Virus record (IMG/VR): IMGVR_UViG_3300031951_000044
From: a virus
Lineage: Duplodnaviria; Heunggongvirae; Uroviricota; Caudoviricetes
Direction: 5' to 3' (one strand)
DNA length: 64,000 nucleotides
The number at the start of each line of letters is the position of its first letter. Position 1 is the first letter of the stretch. Of the stretch, positions 1,478 to 60,456 are shown in pieces. Below the pieces are notes generated by a model that worked only from the letters and a program-made list of their open reading frames with translations, did no database searches and had not been told where the DNA came from. Made by a program: the position numbers and the translations under genes.

Positions 1478-1498
1478 TTTGACAATACAAATATACAT
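1478..1498 (-). promoter_or_regulatory. phage promoter motif (gene strand TAtaTTTGtattgtcaaa; Bacteroidetes -7 TAnnTTTG)
   Basis: tttgacaatacaaatatacat on + strand; same motif recurs upstream of many minus-strand genes. Confidence 0.55.
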
Positions 1499-1536
1499 GG
1501 AATTTTTGAATCTGCAATACTCCCTTTGAAAATTAA

Positions 1537-1758
1537 TTACTCGATGATAAACAATTCCTCATCAAGTTTTTCAAGTTCTTCTTCTGAAAACTGACCATTA
1601 TCGAACACAATACATTCAACTTTATTGAATTCAGCTTCATCAATAGCTTGATCAACTTTTTTAATCAATTCATCAATATCGCTGAATTTAATCCCAACGG
1701 TGAATGATGGATTAAAGTCACCACGACTAACTATTTGTACAGTTGCTTGACGTTCCAT
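1537..1758 (-). CDS. hypothetical protein
   Basis: ORF preceded by conserved promoter motif at 1773-1793. Confidence 0.45.
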   Translation of the reverse strand: MERQATVQIVSRGDFNPSFTVGIKFSDIDELIKKVDQAIDEAEFNKVECIVFDNGQFSEEELEKLDEELFIIE

Positions 1759-2507: not shown

Positions 2508-2527
2508 TTTGACAACACAAAGATAAG
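2508..2527 (-). promoter_or_regulatory. phage promoter motif
   Basis: tttgacaacacaaagataag (gene strand TAtcTTTG). Confidence 0.55.
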
Positions 2528-2544
2528 AAAATCTAATTAAACAA

Positions 2545-2688: not shown

Positions 2689-2710
2689 CTTGTTTGGTTT
2701 TTTGGTTTGT

Positions 2711-2732
2711 TTGACAATACAAAGCTACAAAT
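2711..2732 (-). promoter_or_regulatory. phage promoter motif
   Basis: ttgacaatacaaagctacaaat (gene strand TAgcTTTG). Confidence 0.55.
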
Positions 2733-2787
2733 AATTTTCTATACTTGCAAATTTATTCGGATGAACAAATTTTATCATTCGGTTTTG

Positions 2788-2861
2788 TGGTCCCAACAGG
2801 ATTTGAACCTGTAACCTACTGATTATGAGTCAGTTGCTCTAACCGATTGAGCTATGAGACC
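2788..2861 (-). tRNA. tRNA with CAT anticodon (elongator Met or, more likely given adjacent TilS, tRNA-Ile2 k2CAU)
   Basis: gene strand ggtctca-ta-gctc...actga/CTCATAA/tcagt...caggTTCAAATcctg...tgggacc-a; 7-bp acceptor, G1-C72 paired (not initiator), C4-G69, anticodon loop cuCAUaa, T-loop TTCAAAT. Confidence 0.8.
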
Positions 2862-2887
2862 ATTTTCTACTACAAAGATAGCAAATT

Positions 2888-3490
2888 TTACGTTTCTTGT
2901 CTATTCATTACCAACTTTTTAACAATTTTTCTGATACCGGGATTAATAATAAATACTTCCGGAATAATTTTATGTCTGATTCGATTACGTGCAAATCGAA
3001 TATCATCATTTGATTTATCATCCCAATATGGAACACTTTTATCGTTACACCAATTTTGAAACGCTACCTTTGACGTGGTTAAAAATGGTCGAATAACATT
3101 TTTATTACAATAGTTGATTACTTTTGGTTTTCCATGAATACAGGAAAAAATATAAGTTTCAACAACGTCATCAAGATGATGTGCGGTAATAACCGTCCCA
3201 TTAATCGAATGAAAAAACTCATAACGAATGTTTCTCCAATATTCCTCAAGAGATTCAGTTTTAAGACGATTTCTCTTAGATAATCCAAAAATTATCTTAA
3301 CATTATTATTTTCACAATATTTGCGAATCTTATCTTCTACAAATTGTGAATGTTCAGTTCCATGATTGAAGTAAAGAACGGTTACATCCTTTTTACCTCT
3401 AATTAAAAAATCAAGAACAGCCATAGAATCAACACCACCTGAGCAAGCAAGGTAAACATTGTGGGGAATACTACCCATGATTTTAATCAT
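2888..3490 (-). CDS. tilS: tRNA(Ile)-lysidine synthetase, catalytic N-terminal domain only (200 aa)
   Basis: PP-loop SGGVDS; AHHLDDVVETYIF; IRPFL; WDDKSNDDIRFARNRIRHKIIP all match TilS signature blocks. Confidence 0.75.
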   Translation of the reverse strand: MIKIMGSIPHNVYLACSGGVDSMAVLDFLIRGKKDVTVLYFNHGTEHSQFVEDKIRKYCENNNVKIIFGLSKRNRLKTESLEEYWRNIRYEFFHSINGTVITAHHLDDVVETYIFSCIHGKPKVINYCNKNVIRPFLTTSKVAFQNWCNDKSVPYWDDKSNDDIRFARNRIRHKIIPEVFIINPGIRKIVKKLVMNRQET

Positions 3491-3731
3491 CGGAATCTAC
3501 GTCATTTCCATCATGGTCCATACTAAAGAACTCAACATCTGAACCAACATCATATACAGCTTGAACAGCGTCATAACCCACTTTCTTTTCTTCACCAGTT
3601 TTTACCCATTCACCAACACAATCACCTTCATTAATTTGATAAGCGAGAATTTCCAATGAATTAGGATAAAAATTAGGTTCTTCATGAAGAACTGTAACAA
3701 CAAATGTGCTTTTATAGAGTTCTTTTTTCAT
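3483..3731 (-). CDS. hypothetical acidic protein
   Basis: co-oriented ORF; promoter motif 3750-3773. Confidence 0.45.
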   Translation of the reverse strand: MKKELYKSTFVVTVLHEEPNFYPNSLEILAYQINEGDCVGEWVKTGEEKKVGYDAVQAVYDVGSDVEFFSMDHDGNDVDSDD

Positions 3732-3749: not shown

Positions 3750-3773
3750 TTTGACAATGCAAAGCTACAAATT
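3750..3773 (-). promoter_or_regulatory. phage promoter motif
   Basis: tttgacaatgcaaagctacaaat. Confidence 0.55.
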
Positions 3774-5692: not shown

Positions 5693-5918
5693 TGTACCGT
5701 TTACCCGGTTGACGACCCACCCATCTCTTTTTATCCCACAACAGCGGATGGATGGTAGTTCCGTTGTGAGATCCGGGTCAAATCACGCTGGAGTCGAACC
5801 AGTTACGGTTGCGTCAACAACCGAAGCACCGCTGCATTTAAGTCACTTGTTCACTTTCGCTGTTGACGCAGTATACTGATGAACAGTTAACCGTGATTGA
5901 GATTGTAAAGTTACATCA
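5693..5918 (-). ncRNA. GC-rich structured RNA candidate with tRNA-like 3' module
   Basis: GC-rich island in 30% GC genome; T-arm-like ctggTTCGACTccag; 9-bp inverted repeat gcgtcaaca/tgttgacgc; aatcacg...cgtgatt pairing ~124 nt apart; no ORF. Confidence 0.3.
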
Positions 5919-6572
5919 TTAATCCGAGACTTGCAAATTTTTCTTATACTTATTTTTCAATATTCCATAAGATTTCGCCCATTTCCGTATTGCATTATCT
6001 GATACACCATATAATTCACCTATTTTCGTGTATGGTGTTGTTTCGATTAGCGTTTGTAATTCTTCTTTGGTTGGGCGATTTTTGACTTTACGTTTACCAT
6101 ATGTATTTTTAGGGTAAATCATTCTAAAATTTGGGTTAATATCACTCGGTTTACGATAGGTGATTGTAGTTCCGGTTGGGTATTTATAGTCTTCCCACCA
6201 AATTATATCCCTATCTTTGTAAAGAGGTAAAGTAGTTCTTACTGTCATATGTGTTAACCCAACATTGGGTATGTATGCGCACTCGTCTATATCAGGTAGA
6301 TAAATTGCATAATATTCAAAATCGTGAATCTCATATTTCTTTACTACCTCCCCGTTAGTTGTGCGAAAATTTTTCGTACAAAGAATCGCATTAACCTTAT
6401 CGTATTTAACTTGTAATCTAAACAATTTATTATTTGTCGTATCGTGACAAATTAAATCATATTGTAGATGTTCCGCGATTGGGATTGCAACTTGATACCC
6501 CTTTTTAGTTAAGTCTGCTATTACTTGTGTGACACCAATATCACCTTTGGTTTTTTCATTATTTAATCTCAT
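5919..6572 (-). CDS. putative free-standing homing endonuclease (PD-(D/E)XK-like N-domain + C-terminal HTH)
   Basis: YDLICHD...FRLQVKY (D...QxK) nuclease-like core; C-terminal ELYGVSDNAIRKWAKSYGI HTH typical of phage HEases; sits inside tRNA/ncRNA island. Confidence 0.4.
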   Translation of the reverse strand: MRLNNEKTKGDIGVTQVIADLTKKGYQVAIPIAEHLQYDLICHDTTNNKLFRLQVKYDKVNAILCTKNFRTTNGEVVKKYEIHDFEYYAIYLPDIDECAYIPNVGLTHMTVRTTLPLYKDRDIIWWEDYKYPTGTTITYRKPSDINPNFRMIYPKNTYGKRKVKNRPTKEELQTLIETTPYTKIGELYGVSDNAIRKWAKSYGILKNKYKKNLQVSD

Positions 6573-6637: not shown

Positions 6638-6710
6638 AGTACCCCCACCTAGAATCGAACTAGGAACCGAAAATTAGAAGTTTTCTATTATATCCATTTA
6701 ACTATGGGGG
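6638..6710 (-). tRNA. tRNA-Arg (anticodon TCT)
   Basis: gene strand gcccccA...gaaaa/CTTCTAA/ttttc...cctagTTCGATTctagg-tgggggt-a; anticodon stem 5 bp, T-arm canonical, acceptor 7 bp with G1-U72; D-arm not cleanly resolved by eye. Confidence 0.6.
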
Positions 6711-6732
6711 CAAAAGTCGAACCTAAAAATGT

Positions 6733-6830
6733 GCTCCCGGTCAGAATCGAACTGACAAGCCCGTTGGGGGCGACAGATTTTCTTACCACTTCGACTTTCG
6801 CCGCCCCAATATTGGGTTTGTGGTCTGGAC
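6733..6830 (-). ncRNA. tRNA-like element (canonical T-arm gtcagTTCGATTctgac) - cloverleaf not resolved manually
   Basis: perfect T-arm + GC-rich stem ggggcg/cgcccc; could be type-II tRNA, intron-containing tRNA or tRNA fragment. Confidence 0.3.
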
Positions 6831-7049
6831 TATACCATCGCCATAACTTTCGTTTTAGGCGTACCGTGTCTAGTCTCTGCACCTTCATGATTTTCATCAC
6901 GCTTGGCTCAGGATTGGCAGTTAAGCGTTCCCTGAATTTACGGTATTCTACATTCACCTTTTCAAGTGATGCACTCAAATTCTAACTACCTGAAAATGAG
7001 GTAGTTAAGTCTAAAGTCTGTTGTGTTTACCAATTTCACCACGGGAGCA

Positions 7050-7558: not shown

Positions 7559-7717
7559 TTATCCTTGTGCTTCCTCAGCTTTCCTTGCTTCTCGCTCTGC
7601 TCGTTCGCGCAACTTTTGTTGACGCTTAGAGTCAGGTTTAACAGAACCTTTGGGACGACCGCGCTTGCGCTTTGCAGTTTCCACAGACGTTACCGGTGCT
7701 TCAAGAGTTGCTTCCAT
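7559..7717 (-). CDS. AT-hook mini-protein (52 aa), paralog 1
   Basis: manual ORF MEATLEAPVTSVETAKRKRGRPKGSVKPDSKRQQKLRERAEREARKAEEAQG; RGRP AT-hook; own TAacTTTG promoter at ~7745-7765. Confidence 0.4.
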   Translation of the reverse strand: MEATLEAPVTSVETAKRKRGRPKGSVKPDSKRQQKLRERAEREARKAEEAQG

Positions 7718-7857: not shown

Positions 7858-7996
7858 TTATGCTTCCACTTCAACAGTCTTATGTGCATCTCGCTCTGCT
7901 CGTTCGCGCAACTTTTGTTGACGCTTAGAGTTAGGGTTCACCGAACCTTTGGGACGACCGACTTTACGCTTCTCACTTACCACTACATTTTCCATG
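7858..7996 (-). CDS. AT-hook mini-protein (46 aa), paralog 2
   Basis: MENVVVSEKRKVGRPKGSVNPNSKRQQKLRERAERDAHKTVEVEA; tandem duplicate of 7559..7717. Confidence 0.4.
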
Positions 7997-20208: not shown

Positions 20209-20403
20209 TTATTTTTTATAACCCATTTCTACTGCTGTATCATAAGAAACATTATGTGCTGTTACACAATGTACTAAGATACCAAACACATAATAAAAAA
20301 CAGTAACATCTGTTTTTTGAACACTTACTTCGCCAATTTTACCCCATCCCCAAGGACCAACAACTACTTTTTTACCAAACAATGAATTTCTTCGATTGTT
20401 CAT
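20209..20403 (-). CDS. hypothetical protein
   Basis: co-oriented ORF. Confidence 0.4.
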   Translation of the reverse strand: MNNRRNSLFGKKVVVGPWGWGKIGEVSVQKTDVTVFYYVFGILVHCVTAHNVSYDTAVEMGYKK

Positions 20404-21380
20404 TTTTTAGAATCATAAGATTTGTTAATAACTTTAAAAGAACCATTTTCATGATTAATTACAACACCCTCAAAAGGTTTACCTTCAATTTTATCAATAC
20501 CAACCGAATATTTTTGAATCAACTCATTAGTTAATTCGACATCCAATTCAATGATATCAACGAATGGTAATTCCAATTCTTGCGCAACATTTCTAAAATA
20601 GAATCTATCGTTCTTTCTATGATATTTACGTTCTTTAATGTTATATACAGAAAACATTACCCACCCTTTTGGTTTTTGAGAATGTGGATTGTTTCCAGAA
20701 CTTTGAATCCCTTGACCAAACGACTCACCACGAATGCACAAAGAAACATTATGTTTTTTGCAATAGTCAATAAGCTTATTTTTAATGTTGTAACGAGCAA
20801 CATGTGCGGTATAGTTATTTACCGCATCCAACTTCATTTCCAAGTTTCTTCCAAGAACACCAAATTCATCAGTTTCAATGTTATAATAGAAACTACAACT
20901 TTGTCCATCAACTTTAGATGTAACATCAACAATTGAACCGAATGGAAGTTCATCAATGATATTCTCAAATCGAATTTCATCAGTGGGACCAATTCCAACC
21001 GGAAGATAACCTTTTGCTTGAAGATCTTGTGGTTGTGGTGCTTCATAATGAACAACACCAATTTGTTCACTCACATCAGAGCCAACTTGAAGATTTGATA
21101 AATCAACTGGAAGTTGTTCAAACCTAACAATAATACCTTCACTAAATTCGCCACGAAGTTTTACAGCTTTGATTCGTTTTGGTGAATATTTTCGATACTC
21201 TTCAGTCCAAGGTTCAATAGGAAGAACCGCATCAGGTCGAATATAAACAATTTTCTCACCACCCTTATAAAGTCCTTTTTGTGTAACGCATTGAAACCCA
21301 AGAATCTTAACAAGATCAAGTCTATCTGCATCAGGATGAGCTTTGACTTCAGAAATAATTTCAATCGTTGCGTCTTTCAT
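20400..21380 (-). CDS. putative RNA ligase with N-terminal tRNA-binding (Myf/EMAP-like OB) domain
   Basis: N-term HPDADRL...VLPIEP...KLRGEFSEGII = tRNA-binding OB fold; nucleotidyltransferase motif I TSKVDGQSCSFY (KxDG). Confidence 0.55.
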   Translation of the reverse strand: MKDATIEIISEVKAHPDADRLDLVKILGFQCVTQKGLYKGGEKIVYIRPDAVLPIEPWTEEYRKYSPKRIKAVKLRGEFSEGIIVRFEQLPVDLSNLQVGSDVSEQIGVVHYEAPQPQDLQAKGYLPVGIGPTDEIRFENIIDELPFGSIVDVTSKVDGQSCSFYYNIETDEFGVLGRNLEMKLDAVNNYTAHVARYNIKNKLIDYCKKHNVSLCIRGESFGQGIQSSGNNPHSQKPKGWVMFSVYNIKERKYHRKNDRFYFRNVAQELELPFVDIIELDVELTNELIQKYSVGIDKIEGKPFEGVVINHENGSFKVINKSYDSKK

Positions 21381-23341: not shown

Positions 23342-24142
23342 TCAAACTGGCAAATTAATTTTGTTCAAAATTTGATTTGAAACGTGTGTGTATATTTCTG
23401 TGGTTTTAACATTTGAATGACCAAGAATTTTTTGAATAATTCTTAAATCTGTTCCATTTTCTAATAAGGATGTTGCAAAACTGTGTCTAAGTGTGTGTAT
23501 ATGTCCATCAGATTCAATATATTTTTTGTATATTTTCTGACAACTACCTATTGAATATTTAGTACTGTTTTGTCCATTGAAGAGATATTCCTTTGGGATA
23601 TAATTTTTATAATAAGTTCTTAATAGTCTTAATACATTTTGAGATAATGGAACAACTCTATCTTTTCTTCCTTTTGCGTTCTTAATGTGGATTAACATTC
23701 GCTTGGAATCAATATCCTCTATTTTAAGATTAATTATTTCTGAGACTCGTAGACCAACTGAAAAAGTTAAGGTGAGAATTGCTTTGTGTTTGAGATTATC
23801 AATCTTATTTAATTTATCAATGATTGAATTTGAATCAATTACTTTTGGTAGTTTCTTCTCAGATTTAGGTCTTTTAAACGATATTTTATCATATTTTTTA
23901 TTAAGACCAAATTTGTAGAGAAATCTTATTGCGTTAATGATTTGGTTTTGTTGTGCTGTTGAAGTGAATTTATAATTATCTAAATAGGATTGAAAATCTT
24001 GAGCATTACAATGTATTACTTGTTTACTACCAATGTGATTTAAGAAATTTTTTATATGTGAAAGATAATTATCTTTTGTTCTTGGTGAATAGTTTAAATA
24101 TATAAACTTTTCTTCACAAATCTTAATAATTTTATTATTCAA
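23342..24142 (-). CDS. tyrosine site-specific recombinase (Xer/IntI-like, 266 aa)
   Basis: GLRVSE (box I Arg); HTLRHSFATSLLENGTDLRIIQKILGHSNVKTTEIYTHV (H-x-x-R, catalytic Tyr); apparent TTG start. Confidence 0.8.
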   Translation of the reverse strand: MNNKIIKICEEKFIYLNYSPRTKDNYLSHIKNFLNHIGSKQVIHCNAQDFQSYLDNYKFTSTAQQNQIINAIRFLYKFGLNKKYDKISFKRPKSEKKLPKVIDSNSIIDKLNKIDNLKHKAILTLTFSVGLRVSEIINLKIEDIDSKRMLIHIKNAKGRKDRVVPLSQNVLRLLRTYYKNYIPKEYLFNGQNSTKYSIGSCQKIYKKYIESDGHIHTLRHSFATSLLENGTDLRIIQKILGHSNVKTTEIYTHVSNQILNKINLPV

Positions 24143-24823: not shown

Positions 24824-25105
24824 TTATATGCCACCTTGCGGTCTCAGCAACAAGTACCATCCGTTTTTTATGACATCTTCCCAAATCAATACTTCTGCAT
24901 TCAAAGATTGTGCTTGTTCAGTTATACCACCTTGTGCAAGTTGCCAAAGCATATTCATATTCAAAACATCTTCACGACTGATAAAGTATTGTTTTTTCAG
25001 TTCCAATTTTGACCAATCCCATGTTAACCCTTTCCTTCCCAAATCAAAAAGGCGGCATATAACAGCAGTTTGGCAAGATGCGGGGTTTTGTACTTCGTTT
25101 GACAT
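24824..25105 (-). CDS. cassette ORF, hypothetical
   Basis: stop codon overlaps aaaccGTTAtatg core. Confidence 0.4.
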   Translation of the reverse strand: MSNEVQNPASCQTAVICRLFDLGRKGLTWDWSKLELKKQYFISREDVLNMNMLWQLAQGGITEQAQSLNAEVLIWEDVIKNGWYLLLRPQGGI

Positions 25106-25171: not shown

Positions 25172-25557
25172 AGCTGCGAAACGTTATGTGTAAGTGTTCC
25201 ACCCATCGTTCTAATCAACATCTATGTTTAAAATTTTAAAAGAAAAATTATTTGTTAAATGGTTCACTAAACATAGTTTTAGGATATGTTTCTTCCTTTC
25301 TACTTGAAGGGTTAAATATAGTTACTCGTCCAACACCATACGGTTGGTTATCATATTTAATAACCAAATAATCCTTTTTATTATGAAGTTGGTAATTATC
25401 TTCTGGTGCGTTTTTACATGTGACGTATAACCCATCTTTAAAGTTTTCAAATTTTTTAACTATGTTTCCCATAATCTATATATTAATTTTTCTTTTAAAA
25501 TTTTTGTTCAGTTCTCCGATTAAACATTCCACCTTAATAATCCACACCTACACATAA
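25172..25557 (-). mobile_element. conserved cassette frame copy 1 (12-bp terminal IRs GTTATGTGTARG, ~80-nt conserved subterminal arms, inner IR AAATTTTAAAAGAAAAAT) carrying ORF 25248..25472
   Basis: arms near-identical to those at 29257..29820 while enclosed ORFs are unrelated. Confidence 0.55.
25248..25472 (-). CDS. cassette ORF, hypothetical (74 aa)
   Basis: inside conserved frame. Confidence 0.45.
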   Translation of the reverse strand: MGNIVKKFENFKDGLYVTCKNAPEDNYQLHNKKDYLVIKYDNQPYGVGRVTIFNPSSRKEETYPKTMFSEPFNK

Positions 25558-27599: not shown

Positions 27600-27917
27600 T
27601 TAAATTTTAGTTTTTAACATTTCTTTATAAGCATTACCTGTATCAAATTGTTGTTCAAATGTTGGATTTGGATAATGTTCGTTTTTAATCCAATTATCGT
27701 GATGTTCAAATGTTCTCCATTCATTATCACGTAATTCTTTTACCATATTCATCAATCCAGTTCCAACTTTCATATCAGAAGGAATTTCAACTCCACCATC
27801 TGGTGTAACTTTTACAATTGTTTCTAATTTCATATTATTTATTTTTAAATTTTTCAAATTTATTTTGTCCAACCCACAAAAAAGAAAAGAAAAAGGTTCA
27901 GTTCTCCGAATGAGCAT
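27600..27917 (-). CDS. cassette ORF, hypothetical
   Basis: ORF in array. Confidence 0.45.
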   Translation of the reverse strand: MLIRRTEPFSFLFCGLDKINLKNLKINNMKLETIVKVTPDGGVEIPSDMKVGTGLMNMVKELRDNEWRTFEHHDNWIKNEHYPNPTFEQQFDTGNAYKEMLKTKI

Positions 27918-27941
27918 TTGTAGTTTAAATCCGTACTACTG

Positions 27942-28033
27942 CTAACATCGTGTATAAAACATAGCCAATTAAGGTCTGTGGTTTATATTAAGTATTGTGC
28001 GTGGCTACGTTTCATACACCCAACCGTTAGGTG
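27942..28033 (-). repeat. attC-like site (site G)
   Basis: CTAAC-atc-GTGTATAAAAC ...48 nt... GTTTCATACAC-ccaacc-GTTAGGTG. Confidence 0.55.
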
Positions 28034-28042
28034 TAATAAATT

Positions 28043-28231
28043 TTACTCCAACACACCCTTCAAAGTTCGTTTCTTCATTTCACCAAAGTTTCTTTCTTCT
28101 TCTGCCAATTTTCGTAGTTCTTCTTGAAGTTCCATTGGTATTTTATCACCATACTTACCAAGTATCTGAAATAATAATGTTTCCCTACCTAAAGAAACTT
28201 TCATATCAATTAACAGTTGTATATCTTTCAT
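28043..28231 (-). CDS. cassette ORF, hypothetical
   Basis: ORF in array. Confidence 0.4.
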   Translation of the reverse strand: MKDIQLLIDMKVSLGRETLLFQILGKYGDKIPMELQEELRKLAEEERNFGEMKKRTLKGVLE

Positions 28232-28250
28232 AATCCGTAAAATTTACATA

Positions 28251-28383
28251 CACCTAACAAAGTATAACCAAAAGTGGGGTGTAGTTCCAACATTCAGATA
28301 TTGTGCTTCTAATTTACTTTTGTAGGTAAGTCAGGGTTCGGCACTTCTAATCCCCACCTTCGGTTATACTCAACCGTTATAAG
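28251..28383 (-). repeat. attC-like site (site B), nested hairpin
   Basis: CACCTAAC-aa-AGTATAACC...aaGTGGGG...CCCCACctt...GGTTATACT-caacc-GTTATAAG. Confidence 0.6.
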
Positions 28384-28395
28384 TAATAAAACAAA

Positions 28396-28626
28396 CTACT
28401 TTATTCTGTTTATTTTTATAATAAATATTTTAGTGAAAATCATCCAGATCATAAATAAAGTTGAAGACGAAACTAAAATATTTACCAAAAATTGTTTTAC
28501 ACTGAATCCAAAGTGTGATAAATACCACCACCCACTAATAGAACTACCTATTGTTAAAAATAAACAGAATAAAATAAACAGTGTATATAATATACCATCT
28601 AGCGTAATTTGACCTTCAATTTTCAT
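28396..28626 (-). CDS. cassette ORF, small membrane protein
   Basis: hydrophobic 76-aa ORF. Confidence 0.4.
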   Translation of the reverse strand: MKIEGQITLDGILYTLFILFCLFLTIGSSISGWWYLSHFGFSVKQFLVNILVSSSTLFMIWMIFTKIFIIKINRIK

Positions 28627-28656
28627 ATTTAATTATTATTTAGTTTGTTTTACATA

Positions 28657-28813
28657 CTTATAACAACAAATATAAGAAATAAATTTTGATTTATCTAATT
28701 TTTATAGGTAAAATTTACTTCTCATATTTACAACCGTTATGCAAAAGTGTGGCAAGAAAGTTTTGTCTATAATTTGAAATTTTGGAGTTGCCACACCTTC
28801 GCATAACAACGGC
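28657..28813 (-). repeat. two adjacent attC-like sites (possible ORF-less cassette)
   Basis: cTTATAAC-aa-CAAATAT...ATATTTA-caacc-GTTATGCaa overlapping GTTATGC-aaaa-GTGTGGCAA...TTGCCACAC-cttc-GCATAACaacgg. Confidence 0.45.
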
Positions 28814-28858
28814 TAAAACGACAATATTTAAAAACTTTCCCACCGCACAATTGAACAA

Positions 28859-29182
28859 TTAAGAATTACCAAGTATAATGTCAATCACTTCTTTTGGTGC
28901 TTCTATCAATTCATCTTCACGGTATTTTCTCCATCCTGCCTGATTTTCTTCTTGTGAAATACTGTGAGCAATCACCCAAGTAAATTCTCCTTTTTCAGAA
29001 TACTTTTCTACAAATTCCTTTTGAGCAATTACATGTTTGCACAAATAAAATACCTGCGTTCCTGCATAGCAAGTTTGTGCAATCACTTCCATTACTTCCA
29101 AAGCACTCATCTGGTTCTTTGAATTGGTGTCGAATTTTCTTTTCACCAAATTGTTTACGTCAAATTTTGTTTTGATTTCCAT
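28859..29182 (-). CDS. cassette ORF, hypothetical
   Basis: ORF in array. Confidence 0.45.
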   Translation of the reverse strand: MEIKTKFDVNNLVKRKFDTNSKNQMSALEVMEVIAQTCYAGTQVFYLCKHVIAQKEFVEKYSEKGEFTWVIAHSISQEENQAGWRKYREDELIEAPKEVIDIILGNS

Positions 29183-29256
29183 TTTACTTTTTGTTTTTAA
29201 TTATTATTATTTAATTGATTAATTATTTCCCTCGCAAAAGTTTTTAAATACTGCGT

Positions 29257-29820
29257 TTAGCCGATATACGTTATGTGTAAGCGTTCCGTTCATCGTTCTA
29301 ATCAACATTTCGGTTGAAAATTTTAAAAGAAAAATCAAAATCCATAATGAAACCATTTATCATCATTTGGTAGTTGTTCTTTTAATTGTTTGTTTATTTT
29401 TCCCACTATATTTTGAGCAGTAACCGAAGTTATACCTTTAACATCAAAATCATAAGCAATTTGACCGATTGAATATACAAACATTCTCAGTAATTCTCTT
29501 GGTATATCAAATGTTATATCCACATCATAAGTATAGTTTTTACCAGAAAAGTTTATTTCGTCACTTATTGGTCGCATAACTAAGTGATGTAAATCTTCAA
29601 ACCAATCCTTACTCAGTCTTTCACAACCTTTTTTCATCATTGACTCTACCCAAGTTCCAGATGAATTCCACTCTTCTCTTGTTAGAGAAATTTTAACCAC
29701 CTTTTCAAAATAATTGATAGTTGTAATTTTTTGTTTATAATTCATATATTTTTCTTTTAAAATTTTTGTTCATTTCTACTATTTAACATTCTACCTTAAT
29801 TAACCACACCTACACATAAC
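29257..29820 (-). mobile_element. conserved cassette frame copy 2 carrying ORF 29335..29745
   Basis: acGTTATGTGTAAGcgttcc...ttctaatcaacat...aaattttaaaagaaaaat | ORF | atttttcttttaaaatttttgttca...ccacaCCTACACATAAC. Confidence 0.55.
29335..29745 (-). CDS. cassette ORF, hypothetical (136 aa)
   Basis: inside conserved frame. Confidence 0.45.
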   Translation of the reverse strand: MNYKQKITTINYFEKVVKISLTREEWNSSGTWVESMMKKGCERLSKDWFEDLHHLVMRPISDEINFSGKNYTYDVDITFDIPRELLRMFVYSIGQIAYDFDVKGITSVTAQNIVGKINKQLKEQLPNDDKWFHYGF

Positions 29821-29909
29821 AAGGTGTATAAGAAAGTTTGCTATAAAGTTCAGTGGTTAATTTGAAAGTTCATCTAAGCAAACCTTCTCATACACCCAAC
29901 CGTTATAAG
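29813..29909 (-). repeat. attC-like site (site C)
   Basis: CACATAAC-aa-GGTGTATAAG...CTCATACACC-caacc-GTTATAAG. Confidence 0.6.
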
Positions 29910-29916
29910 TAATAAT

Positions 29917-30162
29917 TTAAAATTTATTTATTATTTTATTTTCAATATATTCTTTAACTTTTGACGGTAATATTTGTGTTGGAAATGACCCTTCCGCACC
30001 AACATACATTTCACTACTTGCAACATCACTTGCATCTATTTTATAATATTGTTCATCTGGTGAACATATCGTTACATGAGTTACCTCACCCCATCTACCA
30101 GAACCAACCCAATAAAACCATAGGTCATTTCCAATATGTATTTTTCTTTTCGTTTTTTTCAT
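29917..30162 (-). CDS. cassette ORF, hypothetical
   Basis: ORF in array. Confidence 0.45.
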   Translation of the reverse strand: MKKTKRKIHIGNDLWFYWVGSGRWGEVTHVTICSPDEQYYKIDASDVASSEMYVGAEGSFPTQILPSKVKEYIENKIINKF

Positions 30163-30244
30163 AGGTATAAATTGTAAATTACATACTTATAACAGCAAAT
30201 AAAACACATTAAAACGATTGTTTATCATCAGACGTTATAAACAA

Positions 30245-30670: not shown

Positions 30671-32674
30671 CTACATCTCGTTTCCAAATATAGTCCCTAC
30701 ATGTAAATCTTTTTCTTTTCTTTTTTCTTCCCACGCTTTTTTTATTTCCATAGAAAGAAATGGTAAAATCGAAAAAAGTAGTTTATTTAAGTGTTTTAAA
30801 ACATAGTAAAACTCTGTTTCATATTTAATTCTCATATTGGAATTTGTGTCAGATTCATAAAATTCATTTTTAATATCCTCCGTCAACAAAGATGAATAAT
30901 AGTTTATAAATTCAACAAAACCCCTTACTGCTTTATTCAAATCAAATTCATTGACAAGTAAATCAAATTTATTTTCCAACTCTTTTACTTTAAAAAAAAT
31001 ATTTTCATCAACTTTTGTTTCATCATAATCATATATATATAGATTATTAAATAAATAACGGAGAAAGTTTCTTATTTTAAAATATTGTTTACCAGAGTTT
31101 TTTAATGAATCTTCCGAAAAGACAATATCGTTTTTAAAATCTGACAGTAAAACCCATAGTCTTAATACATCAGGGTTATATGTTTCATACAGCTTTTCCA
31201 AACTTCCGCCATTACCTTTTGATTTTGATAGTTTTTCTAATGTGTTATCAACAATAAATCCGTGTGTTATTATTCTTTTTGTTGGTACTCGACCAATCAT
31301 TGATGCTAATATAATCGAACTTTGAAACCACCCTCTGTGTTGGTCTGAACCTTCAATGTATATATCGGCAGGTTTATCATACATCATAAATGTAGAACCA
31401 CTATCAAACCAAACATCCAATATATCATTACTATTAGGTATTTTAACACCCCATTTTCTTTGTCTTGAAATACACCAATCTTTGCGTGAAAATATTGTCG
31501 TTGATAAACGATTTCTGTCTTTTGATGATAACTTTATTTCTTTTAAACAAGTCTTTATTTTGTTTAAATCAAAATCAAGATACGTTTGTTCCGTTAATAC
31601 TTTATACACCTTATTCCCTTCACGCCAATCAATTGGATAATCGTGTGTGTAAATTTCACGTTTATATACAAACTTTTCATCAATTTTAAAATCTTCTATG
31701 TGTTTTAATAAGCCGATTTTATCGCACACATTTTTGGGGGTTATGTTATTATCCATTAAAATTCGATAATCTTCATCACCGTGTCCACCGCAAAGATGTA
31801 CTATACCTGTTTTATCATCTGAAACGTAGTCATCATAAATAATTGGACATAAATCTCCATTGTGGTTATGATATGACTTAATATTACTCACATCAAACAA
31901 ATCATAATCTAAATTATTTTCAATAGCAAAACTTTCACTACAAATAATATTGTCAACAGTTTTAACATATTTTATATTATTACTTAAACATACTGCCTGA
32001 TTTCCGTTTACAGTCCATTCTGTTGTTGTCCAAACAAGTAATTTAAAACTATCAGAGTTGAATAGAAAATACAAAGATTCATCTTCTATTTTTTTATATT
32101 CAATTTCTGAGTTAGCCAATACTGTTTTTAATGTTGGTGAGTACCAAGTAGGCTTATTCTTTTTAAGAATTAGACCCGCATTTAGTAGTTGGTGGTATAT
32201 ATATAATTCTCTTTCTATAAAATCAATATCCATAGTTTTAAACCTACCTTCAGTTGGATAAATCCCGAAAAGTTCAAGAGTTTTATTTTGAATATCACAA
32301 TATTTGGTTGCGACTAATTTAGCATTTTGAATTAAATCACCACTCATTTCTTTTGCTTTATTTTCAATGGGTAAACCATGACAGTCCCAACCAAATGAAA
32401 CCCTAACTTTCTTACCTTTTGTTAAGTAATATTTTACAACAAAATCTTTCAAGGTTTTGTTTAAAAAATGTCCCAAATGTAATTCTCCATTGGCGTATGG
32501 TTCACCATCTTGTATAATGTATTCATCATTTGAATTTTCATACAAGTTGTTCACATAATCTTTGATAGAAGCGTTCAATAAAGTAAGTTTATCTCTATCT
32601 AACTTCTGTGTAATTTCTTCTTTTGGTAATAATACTTTATTCATTATTTTAAATTTTATTTTCCCACCACACAA
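30671..32674 (-). CDS. ileS: minimalist isoleucyl-tRNA synthetase-like class I aaRS (667 aa)
   Basis: PYANGELHLGH (HIGH), GWDCHGLPIE, WTTTEWT, DWCISRQRKWGV, DVWFDSGST, EGSDQHRGWF, KLSKSKGN (KMSKS) - IleRS signature blocks; CP1 and C-terminal regions much shorter than bacterial IleRS. Confidence 0.7.
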   Translation of the reverse strand: MCGGKIKFKIMNKVLLPKEEITQKLDRDKLTLLNASIKDYVNNLYENSNDEYIIQDGEPYANGELHLGHFLNKTLKDFVVKYYLTKGKKVRVSFGWDCHGLPIENKAKEMSGDLIQNAKLVATKYCDIQNKTLELFGIYPTEGRFKTMDIDFIERELYIYHQLLNAGLILKKNKPTWYSPTLKTVLANSEIEYKKIEDESLYFLFNSDSFKLLVWTTTEWTVNGNQAVCLSNNIKYVKTVDNIICSESFAIENNLDYDLFDVSNIKSYHNHNGDLCPIIYDDYVSDDKTGIVHLCGGHGDEDYRILMDNNITPKNVCDKIGLLKHIEDFKIDEKFVYKREIYTHDYPIDWREGNKVYKVLTEQTYLDFDLNKIKTCLKEIKLSSKDRNRLSTTIFSRKDWCISRQRKWGVKIPNSNDILDVWFDSGSTFMMYDKPADIYIEGSDQHRGWFQSSIILASMIGRVPTKRIITHGFIVDNTLEKLSKSKGNGGSLEKLYETYNPDVLRLWVLLSDFKNDIVFSEDSLKNSGKQYFKIRNFLRYLFNNLYIYDYDETKVDENIFFKVKELENKFDLLVNEFDLNKAVRGFVEFINYYSSLLTEDIKNEFYESDTNSNMRIKYETEFYYVLKHLNKLLFSILPFLSMEIKKAWEEKRKEKDLHVGTIFGNEM

Positions 32675-34119: not shown

Positions 34120-34794
34120 TTAGACAAAGCTAATCATTCTATTTGACATATCCAAATCAATGTTCAAAGGTTTGTTTTGATAAACATAATTTTCACCAAG
34201 AGAACACGCATTAATAAAATTAATATTGTCTCTTTGCATATAACCATAAGAATAATGAATATGACCAAAACAATGAATTATTGGATTAATTCTTTTAATT
34301 TCTTCGGTCAAAATTTCGCATCCAACGGATTGTCCCTGAATTGTTTTGTCCAAACAACCAAACGGTGGACCATGTGTAATTAATATATCAATATTCTCCG
34401 GTATTGCTTTCCATTTTTCTTTAAGTTTTTCACCGTTTCTTGGAAGATTAAACGCCCAATTATAAAATTCTGGTTGCCAAGGTGAGCCATAAATTTTGAC
34501 CCCCTCAATTTCAACCATATTATCCTGAAGATAAATTATATTTGAATATTCTTGAACCAATTCCTTTGATTGGAGTGGGTTATCTTCAAAGAAGAAATCG
34601 TGATTACCAGCAATGAATACTTTGTGTGTATAGGAATCTAAATCGGTAAACCATTCAAGGAACAATCTAACCTCTTCTCTATAACCACGCGAAGAAATAT
34701 CACCACAATGAATAATCATGTCTCCACCCGGAAGATGTTCTTTCGGAATGTGATGATGTTTTGTGTGGGTATCAGATATTATTGTAATTAACAT
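34120..34794 (-). CDS. calcineurin-like metallophosphoesterase
   Basis: IISDTH...HCGDI...GNHD...HGPPFG motifs. Confidence 0.65.
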   Translation of the reverse strand: MLITIISDTHTKHHHIPKEHLPGGDMIIHCGDISSRGYREEVRLFLEWFTDLDSYTHKVFIAGNHDFFFEDNPLQSKELVQEYSNIIYLQDNMVEIEGVKIYGSPWQPEFYNWAFNLPRNGEKLKEKWKAIPENIDILITHGPPFGCLDKTIQGQSVGCEILTEEIKRINPIIHCFGHIHYSYGYMQRDNINFINACSLGENYVYQNKPLNIDLDMSNRMISFV

Positions 34795-37230: not shown

Positions 37231-37740
37231 TTATTTTAATATTTGGTTTAAATAATCAAACATGGGTTTTAATTCATCGCAATATAACTCACGATTAAAT
37301 TCCTCATTTTCTTTACGATACGCATTCACCATTGAACTATCATTACTTATAGAATAACTCGCATTTGCAAGTCTATCGCAGACCTTAACGAATCTAGCAA
37401 CAGGAATATCGCGAATACCCTGATAGTATTTAGCATTCGCTCGGTCTTTTCGCGTCCTACCTTTTTCATTCGTTAATGCATAGACAGCTTCTGCAATTTG
37501 CTCACCGAATTCCTTTTTGATGTCGTTGTAACTTATAAAGTAAATATCCTCTAGTGTGTCGTGTAACCATGCGGATGCTTGCGCTATTTCCAAATCATCA
37601 TCTTTAAGGAGATATTGGAACTGACTTGCAAATTCACTGACCATTTTAAGATGAACCTCATAAGGTTGATTATCATATTTTTGATTCACAGCATTGTGTG
37701 CTTTGATTGCAAACTCCCTTGCTTTATTTACTATATTCAT
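37231..37740 (-). CDS. HD-domain phosphohydrolase
   Basis: H...WLHDTLED...D motif. Confidence 0.6.
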   Translation of the reverse strand: MNIVNKAREFAIKAHNAVNQKYDNQPYEVHLKMVSEFASQFQYLLKDDDLEIAQASAWLHDTLEDIYFISYNDIKKEFGEQIAEAVYALTNEKGRTRKDRANAKYYQGIRDIPVARFVKVCDRLANASYSISNDSSMVNAYRKENEEFNRELYCDELKPMFDYLNQILK

Positions 37741-39539: not shown

Positions 39540-40613
39540 TTAATCTTCTTTATTCCAATAAGGTTTTTGATATTTTGGTCTTACCAAATCCCAAATTAGT
39601 GGTTTATAATTTCTATTATCCAACATCGAATACAATATTTTTTGATATCTTGGAATCACATTCGATTGTATCCATAATGCTTTATCTTTTCTATTTTCAA
39701 GTTGTTGATTATTGAGTTCATCTTTTTTTGTATTGCAGACTGATAAAATGTAATCAAAAGACTTGTTCAAGTCAAATATCTTACCTCTAACCCACTTATC
39801 AAATTCATCTGGAACTTTATTCAAGAACGCATAAATATCATCTTCGTTTTTCAAACATTCCCAAATATCAACGTTTGAAAAATTGGTTATTAATTTATGC
39901 AAACGAACATATTCATCAAATTTAATTTTGATTCGATAGTTAGATGGTTCAAATTTAATAATATAACCCTCTCTATTTTCTTCAAAAGAATTCTTTAATG
40001 ATTTATAATCAAATACATTTCCATATTCTTTAACAATATGTGAATTGGGTATTTGACAACGATTAAATTCTTCTTTGCACTGAGACCAAGAAAGTTCCTT
40101 ATCTTTATGATAGATGGATAAGAAAAATAGTTTTTCCTCATTATAAACCACAACAATCGTGTTTTCAACATAAATTATTTCAACTAGATATGTGTATTCC
40201 GGATTTAACAAATCAACACGATACAAATTATGTAATATTTCCTCAGCTTTTTGCGCTTGTTCAGACATAAAAGAACCTCTGGTTGCTACATTCCACTTAT
40301 TATCATAATAATAAATAATTCCAAGTGATCCATCACATTTATCTTGCACAATCGGATTTTCTTTTACAATAATATTAAACGCGGAGTGATTTTGTGGTAA
40401 TTCTTCATAATTAAAAAACTTTGAGAATCCTCTAGCAATTAAATTACCGTTCTCATCAAGAATGAGACCACGACAATTAAGCGTAATATCGTCCCACTTA
40501 TTATCAAACTGAGTTTTTCTTGAGTAATTATAAATAAAAAGATTTTTGGTTGGGTGTTTTGTTTCTTCTACCCAACCATCAATAACATATTGCTTTATTT
40601 TATTATGATTCAC
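39540..40613 (-). CDS. RNA ligase, T4 Rnl1-like
   Basis: motif I KCDGSLGIIYY (T4 Rnl1 KEDGSL); 357 aa. Confidence 0.6.
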   Translation of the reverse strand: MNHNKIKQYVIDGWVEETKHPTKNLFIYNYSRKTQFDNKWDDITLNCRGLILDENGNLIARGFSKFFNYEELPQNHSAFNIIVKENPIVQDKCDGSLGIIYYYDNKWNVATRGSFMSEQAQKAEEILHNLYRVDLLNPEYTYLVEIIYVENTIVVVYNEEKLFFLSIYHKDKELSWSQCKEEFNRCQIPNSHIVKEYGNVFDYKSLKNSFEENREGYIIKFEPSNYRIKIKFDEYVRLHKLITNFSNVDIWECLKNEDDIYAFLNKVPDEFDKWVRGKIFDLNKSFDYILSVCNTKKDELNNQQLENRKDKALWIQSNVIPRYQKILYSMLDNRNYKPLIWDLVRPKYQKPYWNKED

Positions 40614-51350: not shown

Positions 51351-52277
51351 TTACTTTTTAAATCTAACGACTTTCTTTATCAATAAGTCACCTAGATGTC
51401 CACTTCCTCTAAAACCCTTACCCTTAACTCTTAGAGGAATTGACGTGTCGAATGTTTCCGGTAGCGTAATCGTTAGATTACCGCTTGGGTGAGGTATTTC
51501 TATCTTATCCAGATTTAACTCGTCTAATGTAAAGATTTTAGTATAAACAAGATCATTATCTATACGTTCAAAATTATTTTGAGGTTCAATATTAACTTTA
51601 ATTATTAAATCTCCATACATACTATTTTTAAAATCTCCTTTACCTTGAACTCTGTATAGTGACCCGTTTTGAACACCAATTGGTAAATTCATATTAAGAT
51701 TATCTGTCTGTGTTTTAAATCCATTACCTGAACAACTAAAGCAGGGATTAACAATGGTAGATCCATTACCGGAGCAAGTATCACATATTGTTTGGATTGT
51801 TTGTGAAAAAAATCCGTTTCCAGTTCTTTTTAGTTTGGTACCGGAACCGGAACAATCTGAACATTTTTTTCGTTCTCCACCATTTCCATTACAAGAATTA
51901 CATGCAATATTTCTTAAATATGTAATTGGTTTATTTATCCCCAAAAAAGAATCAACAACACCGATAGAAACAGTAATAATTTTCTCAGGTGCAGAAGGTC
52001 TTCTGGTTCTATTTTGATTAAATAGATGATTTAATAAATCGTTAATATCTCCAGCACCACTAGAAAAACCAAATGGATTTTTCCTTTGATTATCATACAC
52101 GTTTCTTTTTTCTGAATCGGATAAATTCTCATACGCCTCACTAATTTCTTTAAATTTATCAGCACCATTTGGATTTACATCTGGATGATATTGTTTACTC
52201 ATTTTACGATAAGATTTTTTTATCTCGTCAACTGATGCTGTTTCTGGTACTCCTAAAATTTGATAATAATCTTTCAT
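51351..52277 (-). CDS. dnaJ: DnaJ-like chaperone (J domain + CxxCxGxG zinc finger)
   Basis: YYQILGV...YHPDVNP (HPD); CNSCNGNG...CSDCSGSG...CDTCSGNG...CFSCSGNG. Confidence 0.75.
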   Translation of the reverse strand: MKDYYQILGVPETASVDEIKKSYRKMSKQYHPDVNPNGADKFKEISEAYENLSDSEKRNVYDNQRKNPFGFSSGAGDINDLLNHLFNQNRTRRPSAPEKIITVSIGVVDSFLGINKPITYLRNIACNSCNGNGGERKKCSDCSGSGTKLKRTGNGFFSQTIQTICDTCSGNGSTIVNPCFSCSGNGFKTQTDNLNMNLPIGVQNGSLYRVQGKGDFKNSMYGDLIIKVNIEPQNNFERIDNDLVYTKIFTLDELNLDKIEIPHPSGNLTITLPETFDTSIPLRVKGKGFRGSGHLGDLLIKKVVRFKK

Positions 52278-59655: not shown

Positions 59656-60456
59656 TCACATATATTCAAATAACTCTGATGATTGGTTTCTAAGCTTTCT
59701 CAATGCTCTTTCTTTTATTTGACGAATACGTTCTTTGGTAAGATTAAAATCATTTCCAATTTCCTCAAGTGTTCTTGTTGATCCACTTAAACCAAAATAA
59801 TCATCAATAATAACTTTCTCCCTCTCATCAAGAATATTCATAACATCAAATAATTTTTGTTTTAATGTGTCCTGAGTTGAGAACCCTGAGTCGGGTGATA
59901 ACGCATTTGGGTTTACAATTACATCAATCAATGAATCACCATCTTCATTAATATTCATATCTAATTTAACAATTGACGGTAATGAAGAAAATCTATCTGA
60001 CAGGTTATCACCAGTTTTTTCAGACTTTTTCTTTTCCTTTTGTAAATCTTGAATTACGTTTACAGGAATTCTAATTGATCTAGATTTTTCATTTAATGAT
60101 TGAATTACTGATTGTCTAATCCACCAAACAGCATATGAAATAAATCTTAATTTTTTGGTCCAATCAAAGCTATCAATTGCCTTAATCAAACCCAAATTAC
60201 CTTCAGCAATTAAGTCACCCAATTCCAGTCCTTGATTTTGATATTGTTTTGCCACACTAATGACAAACCGTAAGTTACCCTCAAGGAGTTCTTTTTTAAT
60301 ATCATCTATCTGCTCTTTATTTGCGATGCCGCTATTCATTACTTCAGAAAGCTCTCTTTCCCTTTCAGGAGTCATTACTTTAAATTTACGGATATCTTTT
60401 AAGTACCCATAAATTTCTTCTTGGTTAATTGAAACTGTAGTGTTTTTGTCTTTCAT
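59656..60456 (-). CDS. sigma-70 family RNA polymerase sigma factor
   Basis: region 2 LRFVISVAKQYQNQGLELGDLIAEGNLGLIKAIDSFD; region 4 TLEEIGNDFNLTKERIRQIKERALRKLR. Confidence 0.75.
   Translation of the reverse strand: MKDKNTTVSINQEEIYGYLKDIRKFKVMTPERERELSEVMNSGIANKEQIDDIKKELLEGNLRFVISVAKQYQNQGLELGDLIAEGNLGLIKAIDSFDWTKKLRFISYAVWWIRQSVIQSLNEKSRSIRIPVNVIQDLQKEKKKSEKTGDNLSDRFSSLPSIVKLDMNINEDGDSLIDVIVNPNALSPDSGFSTQDTLKQKLFDVMNILDEREKVIIDDYFGLSGSTRTLEEIGNDFNLTKERIRQIKERALRKLRNQSSELFEYM

Follow-up and report, generated by a model that had tools for sequence, protein, structure and literature searches.

The 64,000-nucleotide (nt) stretch analysed here (the window), taken from the IMG/VR virus record IMGVR_UViG_3300031951_000044 (Caudoviricetes), carries on its minus strand a gene for a 200-residue PP-loop ATPase related to the tRNA(Ile)-lysidine synthetase TilS, followed by a tRNA with anticodon CAU. 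The protein, here called mini-TilS, corresponds to the catalytic domain of TilS only. Its stop codon, TAA, occupies 2890-2888 and position 1 of the tRNA lies at 2861, which leaves 26 nt between them, the distance given in the first-pass annotation of this DNA, where the two had been put forward as a putative module for decoding AUA. An open reading frame (ORF) of 82 residues, orf82, lies on the 5' side of mini-TilS, and a class Ia aminoacyl-tRNA synthetase nearest to isoleucyl-tRNA synthetase (IleRS), here mini-IleRS, is encoded 27 kb from the pair (Table 1).

The TilS-like protein and its CAU tRNA

The mini-TilS product begins MIKIMGSIPHNVYLACSGGVDSMAV, contains YLACSGGVDSMAV and carries the PP-loop SGGVDS at residues 17-22. 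In profile searches it reached 126.4 bits against TIGR02432 (lysidine_TilS_N), above the curated NCBIfam cutoff of 93.6, and 3e-33 against the PP-loop family PF01171, whereas QueC, ThiI, TtcA and PAPS reductase gave weak matches (E = 7e-5 to 0.14; 22 bits for TtcA, 17 for QueC and 13 for ThiI) and TtuA and LarE also stayed below 23 bits. PHROGs holds no TilS family, and mini-TilS obtains there weak PAPS-reductase and QueC-like matches. The solved-structure sequences matched by the protein are three distinct ones, all TilS, from Aquifex aeolicus (1wy5), Geobacillus (3a2k) and E. coli (1ni5), the best being 1wy5 with E = 6e-20 over residues 25-227 of 317. The TilS signature blocks TAHHLDDVVET, IRPF and DDKSNDDIRFARNRIRH align with all three structures; the third block reads DDKSNDDIRFARNRIRHKIIPE in mini-TilS, with the motif DDKSNxDxxxARNRIRH in the alignment to solved TilS. 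An AlphaFold2 model built with 34 homologues in the alignment has a mean predicted local distance difference test score (pLDDT) of 94.8, and in a Foldseek search against the PDB its top five hits were all TilS, with query-normalised template modelling (TM) scores of 0.81-0.83 (0.82-0.83 for Aquifex TilS, 2e89/2e21/1wy5; 0.81 for E. coli TilS), followed by the thiolases TtuA and TtcA at about 0.7. The CxxC iron-sulfur motifs of these thiolases were not found in the mini-TilS sequence. The earlier description of the protein as a minimal, catalytic-domain-only TilS with SGGVDS and further signature blocks is thus borne out by profile, alignment and fold, and TilS is far ahead of other PP-loop ATPases by profile, structure sequences and fold alike.

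The target-normalised TM scores are only 0.54 (Aquifex) and 0.39 (E. coli), because mini-TilS spans the N-terminal domain only: the chain ends at residue 200, equivalent to about residue 227 of the 317 of Aquifex TilS, and neither C-terminal domain 1 (CTD1) nor C-terminal domain 2 (CTD2) is present. Two types of TilS have been described, type I with a catalytic domain, CTD1 and CTD2, and type II with a catalytic domain and CTD1; removal of CTD2 from one type I enzyme sharply lowers activity and abolishes reading of the 3:70 pair, and no TilS devoid of C-terminal domains is described in that work (PMC11947777, 2025). Mini-TilS falls outside both types and, lacking the C-terminal domains, is therefore filed here as a TilS catalytic-domain homologue rather than under either of them. 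With the Aquifex type II enzyme (1wy5/2e21/2e89) it shares the PP-loop catalytic domain, the motifs and the fold, but it stops at the end of that domain, whereas the Aquifex protein, of 317 residues, includes CTD1. As judged by profile, alignment and modelled fold, the 200-residue product is a TilS catalytic domain, which would be expected to form lysidine.

ARAGORN places a tRNA of 75 nt, anticodon CAT, at 2787..2861 of the minus strand, and the Rfam tRNA model scores 77.9 bits at 2788..2861. The cloverleaf is fully paired, with the acceptor stem G1-C72, G2-C71, U3-A70, C4-G69, U5.G68, C6-G67 and A7-U66, the D stem GCUC/GAGC, the anticodon stem ACUGA/UCAGU with the loop CUCAUAA, the T stem ACAGG/CCUGU and the discriminator A73; CCA is not encoded. 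The body is non-initiator, with 1-72 paired and with neither a G29-G31/C39-C41 run nor A11-U24. Both features cited in the first-pass annotation, the paired 1-72 (G1-C72) and C4-G69, are therefore seen in the cloverleaf.

The distinction between tRNA-Ile2 and elongator tRNA-Met was made with reference tRNAs obtained by scanning species-representative genomes for CTCATAA-N13/14-GTTCRANTC, which gave 120 loci, and by extraction with ARAGORN, which yielded 122 CAU tRNAs. Initiators were dropped by a 1-72 mismatch or a GGG/CCC anticodon stem, and the final sets comprised 17 Met tRNAs (C3-G70) and, after one archaeal sequence had been removed from 26, 25 Ile2 tRNAs, which have G3-C70, A3-U70 or U3-A70, mostly together with C4-G69 and C5-G68. 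The two groups separated cleanly, and the split agrees with the discriminators of Silva et al. 2006 for tRNA-Ile2, namely the absence of C3-G70 and the frequent presence of C4-G69 and C5-G68 (PMC1635315). As an internal control, the Bacteroidota endosymbiont Ca. Shikimatogenerans carries both kinds within 8 kb, and the acceptor strand of its Ile2-type tRNA, GGUCUCG, is close to the GGUCUCA of the window tRNA. The log-odds of Ile2 over Met for the window tRNA are +33.1 bits (+31.0 without the pair 3-70), against 5.8 to 61 for the Ile2 references and -46 to -3 for the Met references when each was left out in turn; the ratio of mean differences to the two sets, a Silva-type distance measure, is 0.73, with ranges of 0.56-0.89 for Ile2 and 0.96-1.44 for Met, and its five nearest neighbours are all Ile2 references. 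E. coli ileX and metT, taken as the RefSeq features named tRNA-Ile and tRNA-Met (100% match), score +25.8 and -12.2, respectively.

Among individual positions, C4-G69 (21 of 25 Ile2 and 0 of 17 Met references) and G68 (23 of 25 and 0 of 17) are present in the window tRNA, C3-G70, found in all 17 Met references, is absent, and U48 adds to the Ile2 call. Measured against the Silva discriminators, C4-G69 and G68 are kept, C5 is replaced by U5 and C3-G70 is lacking; U3-A70 is not on that list and occurs in Ile2-type tRNAs of the Bacteroidota endosymbiont and of other phages (PMC1635315). The TilS anti-determinants C3-G70, U4-A69 and A5-U68 were looked for in the window tRNA and none was found. With the E. 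coli ileX/ileY-type tRNA-Ile2 it has in common the CAU anticodon, the paired 1-72, C4-G69, G68, A73, U12-A23 and the overall profile; cellular tRNA-Ile2 usually has G3-C70 or C3-G70 and C5-G68, whereas the window tRNA has U3-A70 and U5.G68. By profile and distance classifier, on which the call rests, the window CAU tRNA is classed as a tRNA-Ile2, and the earlier claim that it is Ile2-like and not Met agrees with this result.

Its nearest counterpart in a cultured phage is a tRNA of Vibrio phage V09 (KVP40 group; 1522..1599), annotated as tRNA-Met, with the acceptor GGCCCTA, C4-G69 and C5-G68 and a score of +26.4 towards Ile2. A TilS relative was not found in KVP40-group Vibrio phages, and the KVP40-type tRNA is probably a mislabelled tRNA-Ile2 dependent on the host TilS.

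Mini-TilS, linked tRNAs and a short IleRS across phages

A search of 5.8 billion proteins gave 910 clusters matching mini-TilS at E <= 1e-10; the best 120 of the 910 all measure 194-227 residues and lie on contigs of up to 462 kb. In 34 homologues, 47-66% identical to the window protein, the invariant residues include S17, G18, G19, D21, S22, H43, R86, R89, H104, D108 and E111, followed by R134, P135, D158, N161, R168, R172 and N183-P184-G185, and the PP-loop SGGVDS is likewise invariant; all 34 stop soon after the NPG motif. The nearest relatives in GenBank phage records, at 49% identity, come from two huge phages, both uncultured, of 635 and 642 kb; PA5oct, MIJ3 and related jumbo phages of Pseudomonas follow at 39.5%, and their records name the gene product tRNA(Ile)-lysidine synthetase. 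In IMG/VR, a single-sequence scan found one weak relative; the alignment-based repeat that was used instead found that 381 viral contigs encode one. On these alignments, the short TilS form of about 200 residues is a large phage family.

The association of this family with CAU tRNAs was followed in two samples. In eight metagenomic lineages, sampled via exact protein-sequence look-up, a CAU tRNA lies within 6 kb of mini-TilS in six and within 61 nt in three: upstream by 61 nt in L006 (a 386-kb contig) and by 18 nt in L013/L014, and downstream by 1.2 kb in L015/L016, by 2.3-3.6 kb in L003-L005 and by 4.3 kb in L011; L007/L008 and L009/L010 have none within 6 kb. The second sample, of 80 IMG/VR loci (L139-L218), contains 24 loci with any tRNA within 6 kb of mini-TilS and 20 with a CAU tRNA, among which 16 distinct CAU sequences occur. 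Twelve of the distinct sequences lie at most 1.3 kb from mini-TilS, eight of them at 18-72 nt, and all twelve are Ile2-type: eleven are without C3-G70 and score +13.5 to +52.4, and the twelfth, which the parser could not score, has G3-C70. Four Met- or initiator-like CAU tRNAs (-21.7 to -51.5) are all more than 2.4 kb away, in tRNA arrays, and one weakly Ile2-like CAU tRNA lies at 3.9 kb. At six IMG/VR loci the CAU tRNA is the sole tRNA in 12 kb, and one linked tRNA, CCUCUCA/UGGGAGG, has U3-A70, C4-G69 and U5.G68 as in the window.

The pairing recurs in many independent phage contigs, and the adjacency in the window is therefore not due to chance; moreover, the tRNA is upstream of mini-TilS in some lineages and downstream in others, so the pairing has been kept through rearrangement. 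This conserved gene pairing is the strongest argument for an AUA-decoding module. Most of the tRNAs in the neighbourhood of mini-TilS decode codons that end in A and are abundant in AT-rich phages (Leu-UAA, Arg-UCU and Lys-UUU).

Two further observations concern these tRNAs. The L013/L014 CAU tRNA (5885..5982) has the Ile2-type acceptor GGGCCAG/CTGGCCC, lacks a normal D arm, carries a 24-nt segment between the anticodon and T arms and scores 32.8 bits on a home-built Ile2 model. Anticodon-CUA tRNAs, which would suppress the TAG stop codon, are found within 6 kb of mini-TilS in some relatives (11935..12009 in L007/L008, and four in the IMG/VR sample), which hints that some mini-TilS phages reassign TAG.

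The IleRS-like gene had been proposed to complete the set. The mini-IleRS ORF has 667 codons from a TTG start; an identical database protein has 657 residues, from the ATG at 32644, ten codons downstream. TIGR00392 (ileS) is clearly its best family at 385 bits, with ValS next at 168, and the top solved-structure matches are all IleRS (8wnf, 2.6e-81). It shows HLGH and KLSKS motifs, has retained the peptides WTTTEWT and GIVHLCGGHGDEDY of the editing domain as well as the helical domain for anticodon binding, and in its HIGH and KMSKS motifs, editing peptides and anticodon-binding domain it resembles the bacterial IleRS of 910-920 residues (8wnf, 1ffy). It differs from these in its length of about 650 residues and in forming a separate huge-phage cluster: about 58 internal residues (478-536 of the chain) and the C-terminal 135 or so of a 920-residue IleRS are missing, the alignment stopping at residue 784. 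Among the translations of 27600-30670, judged by eye and without a profile search, no ORF resembles the missing C-terminal domain. About 70 database clusters of 633-700 residues, with 47-100% identity, belong with mini-IleRS, on contigs of up to 603 kb, and cellular IleRS of about 910 residues are 31-35% identical to it. By its alignments mini-IleRS is a distinct IleRS-related family of about 650 residues on huge-phage contigs; the IleRS affiliation given in the earlier proposal stands, tempered by a shortened chain and a score below the equivalog cutoff. In the 635-kb phage LR745206, a distance of 8 kb separates mini-TilS (374005-374583) from an IleRS relative (382044-384227); both sit within a group of 32 tRNAs, with an initiator and both a Met-like and an Ile2-type CAU tRNA among them.

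Virus-encoded TilS is already known. A 2019 paper on phage MIJ3 reports, as the first case from phages, that MIJ3 and PA5oct encode a putative TilS, and leaves its function open; the available part of the paper makes no mention of missing domains or of a tRNA partner (PMC6892783). These proteins belong to the short family (about 203 residues, 39.5% identical to mini-TilS over the full length), and vB_PaeM_MIJ3 is, like the source of the window, AT-rich, being a jumbo phage with three CAU tRNAs, which the classifier places as one initiator-like, one Met-like and one Ile2-like. In MIJ3, however, the CAU tRNAs are 7-10 kb from tilS, whereas in the window the tRNA adjoins mini-TilS, and unlike the window the MIJ3 and PA5oct genomes contain no IleRS relative at E <= 1e-20. 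For chloroviruses, which encode TilS and tRNA clusters, it has been proposed that lysidine synthase helps an AT-rich virus to read AUA, a codon 12-13 times commoner in the chlorovirus than in its host (bioRxiv 10.1101/2020.07.06.190819); these are eukaryotic viruses of an algal host, and the likeness noted to the phage system is one of rationale. A comparative review of jumbo phages makes no mention of TilS, lysidine or PP-loop (PMC7824862), and a broader literature search found no virus-encoded TilS beyond MIJ3 and the chloroviruses. In the literature searched, no description was found of a catalytic-domain-only TilS as a distinct class, of its tight and widespread linkage to an Ile2-type tRNA, of its co-occurrence with a shortened IleRS or of the IleRS family of about 650 residues. 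Since its architecture, tRNA linkage and IleRS co-occurrence were not found described, the window module belongs to a little-described phage variant of an otherwise familiar system.

Two of the MIJ3 CAU tRNAs (24831..24907 and 25312..25388) agree fully in their D, anticodon, variable and T arms, whereas their acceptors are CCCTCGG (Met-like) and GGGACTT (Ile2-like); they look like the outcome of a duplication followed by an acceptor-stem swap.

Proposed AUA decoding and other explanations

A 21-nt motif, TTGTAGCTTTGyrTTGTCAAA, has five minus-strand copies in the window, all within its first 4 kb and upstream of small minus-strand genes, and zero in shuffled sequence; such copies are probably a class of phage promoters. 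Two exact copies (3750-3770 and 2710-2730) bracket orf82, mini-TilS and the tRNA, and at the latter the following unit begins, directly beyond the tRNA. At the stop of orf82 and the start of mini-TilS the two genes share 8 nt, and from this overlap orf82 is probably the first gene of the TilS transcription unit. The spacer holds TATCTTTG (2873..2880, minus strand), 12 nt before tRNA position 1, which fits TAnnTTTG, the Bacteroidota -7 promoter element, and may serve as a promoter. A scan for intrinsic terminators and sigma-70 promoters around the module gave nothing above shuffles. The tRNA may be read through from mini-TilS, have its own start, or both.

TilS and tRNA-Ile2 are among the clearest examples of how modifying one base can change the codon that is read and the amino acid that is carried. 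We consider it likely that a phage-supplied tRNA-Ile2, a dedicated minimal lysidine synthetase with presumed catalysis and a phage IleRS secure AUA decoding. The phage would make its own tRNA-Ile2 with anticodon CAU, transcribed either together with orf82 and mini-TilS, starting at the promoter-like site near 3760, or by way of the TAnnTTTG element of the spacer; host RNase P and a CCA-adding enzyme, the latter needed because CCA is not encoded, would finish it. By analogy with characterised TilS, mini-TilS would then adenylate C2 of C34 with ATP and transfer lysine to form lysidine, and the tRNA, which before this change reads AUG and is charged by methionyl-tRNA synthetase (MetRS), would now read AUA and be charged by IleRS, be it that of the host or mini-IleRS. 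The benefit would be decoding capacity for ATA, a codon that in bacteria relies on one low-abundance tRNA and one modification enzyme. In this scheme we infer catalysis without a C-terminal domain, the charging IleRS, the transcription unit and the selective benefit. That the phage may supply its own AUA decoder, as was first suggested, is supported by what the analysis shows of gene identity, protein fold, tRNA type, conserved linkage and codon counts.

Codon usage was counted in 95 non-overlapping ORFs of the window. The window has a GC content of 29.6%, and ATA accounts for 26.0 per 1000 codons and 28% of Ile codons, more than ATG (23.2 per 1000), which matches the earlier remark that a genome of about 70% AT has abundant ATA; AGA, read by tRNA-Arg(UCU), stands at 21.5 per 1000 and 60% of Arg codons. 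In two small samples from Flavobacteriia ATA was 19.6 and 10.7 per 1000, so that the count is higher in the phage (26 against 11-20), by a modest difference and with tiny samples. The TAnnTTTG-bearing repeated motif and the CHU_C domain genes that adjoin mini-TilS in relatives point to a Bacteroidota host.

Several points weigh against the proposed AUA-decoding function. We know of no TilS lacking both C-terminal domains that has been demonstrated to be active. The full-length TilS equivalog model NF007942 gives mini-TilS 60.9 bits against a cutoff of 606, and the 385 bits of mini-IleRS lie under the NCBIfam equivalog cutoff of 621.4. The Met-like and Ile2-like CAU tRNAs of MIJ3 differ in the acceptor stem alone, and an enzyme that reads only the anticodon could not separate them; both could be substrates, mini-TilS could reach the acceptor stem otherwise, or the sorting could occur at the synthetase step, and which of these applies matters for how mini-TilS of the window would avoid tRNA-Met. 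In addition, the window tRNA has U5.G68 in place of C5-G68 and U29-A41 in place of C29-G41, an IleRS element of E. coli. Home-built covariance models gave it 88.8 bits (Ile2) and 76.6 bits (Met), and unrelated tRNAs also scored 7-15 bits higher on the Ile2 model; entropy weighting had made both models generic, with every tRNA higher on Ile2, and they were dropped as evidence. The ATA mismatch with Flavobacteriia may be modest, and the module is retained in some relatives whose GC content is about 50% and whose ATA count is only 6 per 1000 codons (L013). AUA demand is therefore not the whole explanation, and it is probably not the sole driver of the module.

The retention of the module in such a low-ATA phage would suit a somewhat different role, in which the tRNA, TilS and IleRS serve as a self-sufficient back-up for AUA decoding when infection damages or depletes host tRNAs, for example through anticodon nucleases or tRNA-targeting defence, and codon supply is secondary. 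The window encodes two RNA ligases, one of the T4 Rnl1 type and one of the Rnl2/PHA02142 type with an OB fold, together with an HD-domain protein and a metallophosphatase, a group that could be a tRNA-repair set, and in relatives genes for a CCA-adding enzyme, a 2H phosphoesterase and a 2'-5' RNA ligase lie a few kb from mini-TilS. However, no defence system specific for tRNA-Ile2 is known to us, and the preference for A-ending codons among the neighbouring tRNAs fits codon supply; a back-up role is unlikely, although it would be compatible with the AUA-decoding explanation. It is still less probable that mini-TilS is a TilS-derived PP-loop enzyme that no longer makes lysidine, being inactive alone, dependent on a host partner or engaged in another modification. 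Its lack of both tRNA-binding C-terminal domains, the strong loss of activity upon truncation of type I TilS (PMC11947777) and the thiolases TtuA and TtcA as next-best folds would agree with such a loss of function. Against it stand the TilS-specific invariant residues kept in the 34 members at 47-66% identity, which argue for selection on catalysis, the absence of the thiolase CxxC motifs and the tight linkage, seen repeatedly, with CAU tRNAs of the Ile2 type rather than with other tRNAs, as a lysidine synthetase predicts.

That the window tRNA is an ordinary elongator tRNA-Met lying beside TilS by coincidence is very improbable. ARAGORN, which names tRNAs by anticodon, and most GenBank phage records label CAU tRNAs as Met, as is the case for the similar tRNAs of KVP40-like Vibrio phages, and the window tRNA has A27 and A44, which are commoner in the Met reference set. 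Its acceptor stem, however, departs from the Met references at 3-70, 4-69 and 68, the KVP40-type tRNA itself scores as Ile2, and close adjacency to mini-TilS recurs with Ile2-type tRNAs only. A host shutoff, in which a promiscuous mini-TilS would destroy host tRNA-Met, was considered and rejected: ATG makes up 23 per 1000 codons in the phage's own genes and the gene is linked to an Ile2-type tRNA.

Beyond the AUA-decoding function proposed for the window, the proteins of about 200 residues may represent a third, minimal TilS architecture, specific to large phages and co-evolved with a phage tRNA-Ile2 and sometimes a shortened IleRS in a largely self-contained AUA-decoding pathway, a proposal to which we give even credence. 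If mini-TilS is active, lysidine synthesis and tRNA-Met rejection would need no C-terminal domains, which are regarded as universal in the TilS field, and the MIJ3 CAU pair, in which the acceptor stem alone differs, would offer a ready-made test of its discrimination. TilS has been studied as a bacteria-specific drug target, and a naturally occurring enzyme half as large as the smallest TilS characterised so far, beside its substrate gene, would provide a compact system for minimal tRNA-Ile2 recognition and tRNA-Met rejection. The concept is known, and the minimal enzyme and its conserved pairing with the substrate gene are worth an experiment. Moreover, one phage would supply a tRNA, a modification enzyme and a synthetase for a single codon, which would widen the picture of phage takeover of translation. 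For annotation, phage CAU tRNAs adjoining short PP-loop genes should be labelled Ile2, not Met.

Surroundings of the module in the window

The window contains two tRNAs only, according to ARAGORN over the 64 kb, the Ile2-type CAU tRNA and a tRNA-Arg(UCU), and no capsid or tail genes were found in it. In addition to the genes treated above, an SbcC-like protein (phrog_77), a phage-type sigma factor (phrog_351), phrog_1221, an integrase-family protein, DnaJ, an SPFH protein and an SLT lysozyme are encoded (Table 1). The mini-TilS and mini-IleRS families occur in cultured jumbo phages, complete huge-phage genomes and IMG/VR contigs, and the phage origin of the window is well supported, short of proof from the window alone. 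Because an identical IleRS protein occurs on a 256-kb contig, the window derives from a jumbo-sized genome.

Table 1. Positions of the features discussed in the 64-kb window
Feature	Position	Strand	Basis
Mini-TilS (200 residues, PP-loop ATPase, TilS catalytic domain only)	2888..3490	minus	ORF list, profiles, fold
tRNA, anticodon CAU, classed as tRNA-Ile2	2788..2861	minus	ARAGORN, Rfam, profile and distance classifier
Spacer, 26 nt, mini-TilS stop codon to tRNA position 1	2862..2887	minus	sequence
orf82, 82 residues, no Pfam match	3483..3731	minus	ORF list
Promoter-like motif TTGTAGCTTTGCATTGTCAAA (has TAnnTTTG), 5' of orf82-TilS-tRNA	3750..3770	minus	pattern search
Copies of TTGTAGCTTTGyrTTGTCAAA	513..533, 1478..1498, 2508..2528, 2710..2730, 3750..3770	minus	
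Mini-IleRS, class Ia aminoacyl-tRNA synthetase, nearest IleRS	30671..32674	minus	profiles, structure-sequence matches
tRNA-Arg(UCU)	6639..6711	minus	ARAGORN
RNA ligase, Rnl2/PHA02142 type, OB fold	20400..21380	minus	
Tyrosine integrase-family protein	23342..24142	minus	
Metallophosphatase	34120..34794	minus	
HD-domain protein	37231..37740	minus	
RNA ligase, T4 Rnl1 type	39540..40613	minus	
DnaJ, full-length (J domain, zinc-finger, C-terminal domains)	51351..52277	minus	
Phage-type sigma factor	59656..60456	minus	
PD-(D/E)XK endonuclease ORF (PF11645), 217 residues	5919..6572	minus	
Group I intron match, sub-threshold	6805..6993	minus	Rfam
ORFs with AT-hook-like repeats	7559..7717, 7858..7995	minus	

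Two short ORFs encode near-repeats of RGRPKGSVxPxSKRQQKLRERAER, an AT-hook-like peptide. The stretch around them is richer in GC (about 0.40, against 0.30 for the window) and also gave weak sub-threshold Rfam matches to skipping-rope and manA. At the tRNA-Arg(UCU), an Rfam group I intron match of 42 bits (E = 1.9e-8), under the gathering score of 50, sits 94 nt upstream and the PD-(D/E)XK endonuclease ORF directly downstream; together these could be an intron or homing-endonuclease remnant.

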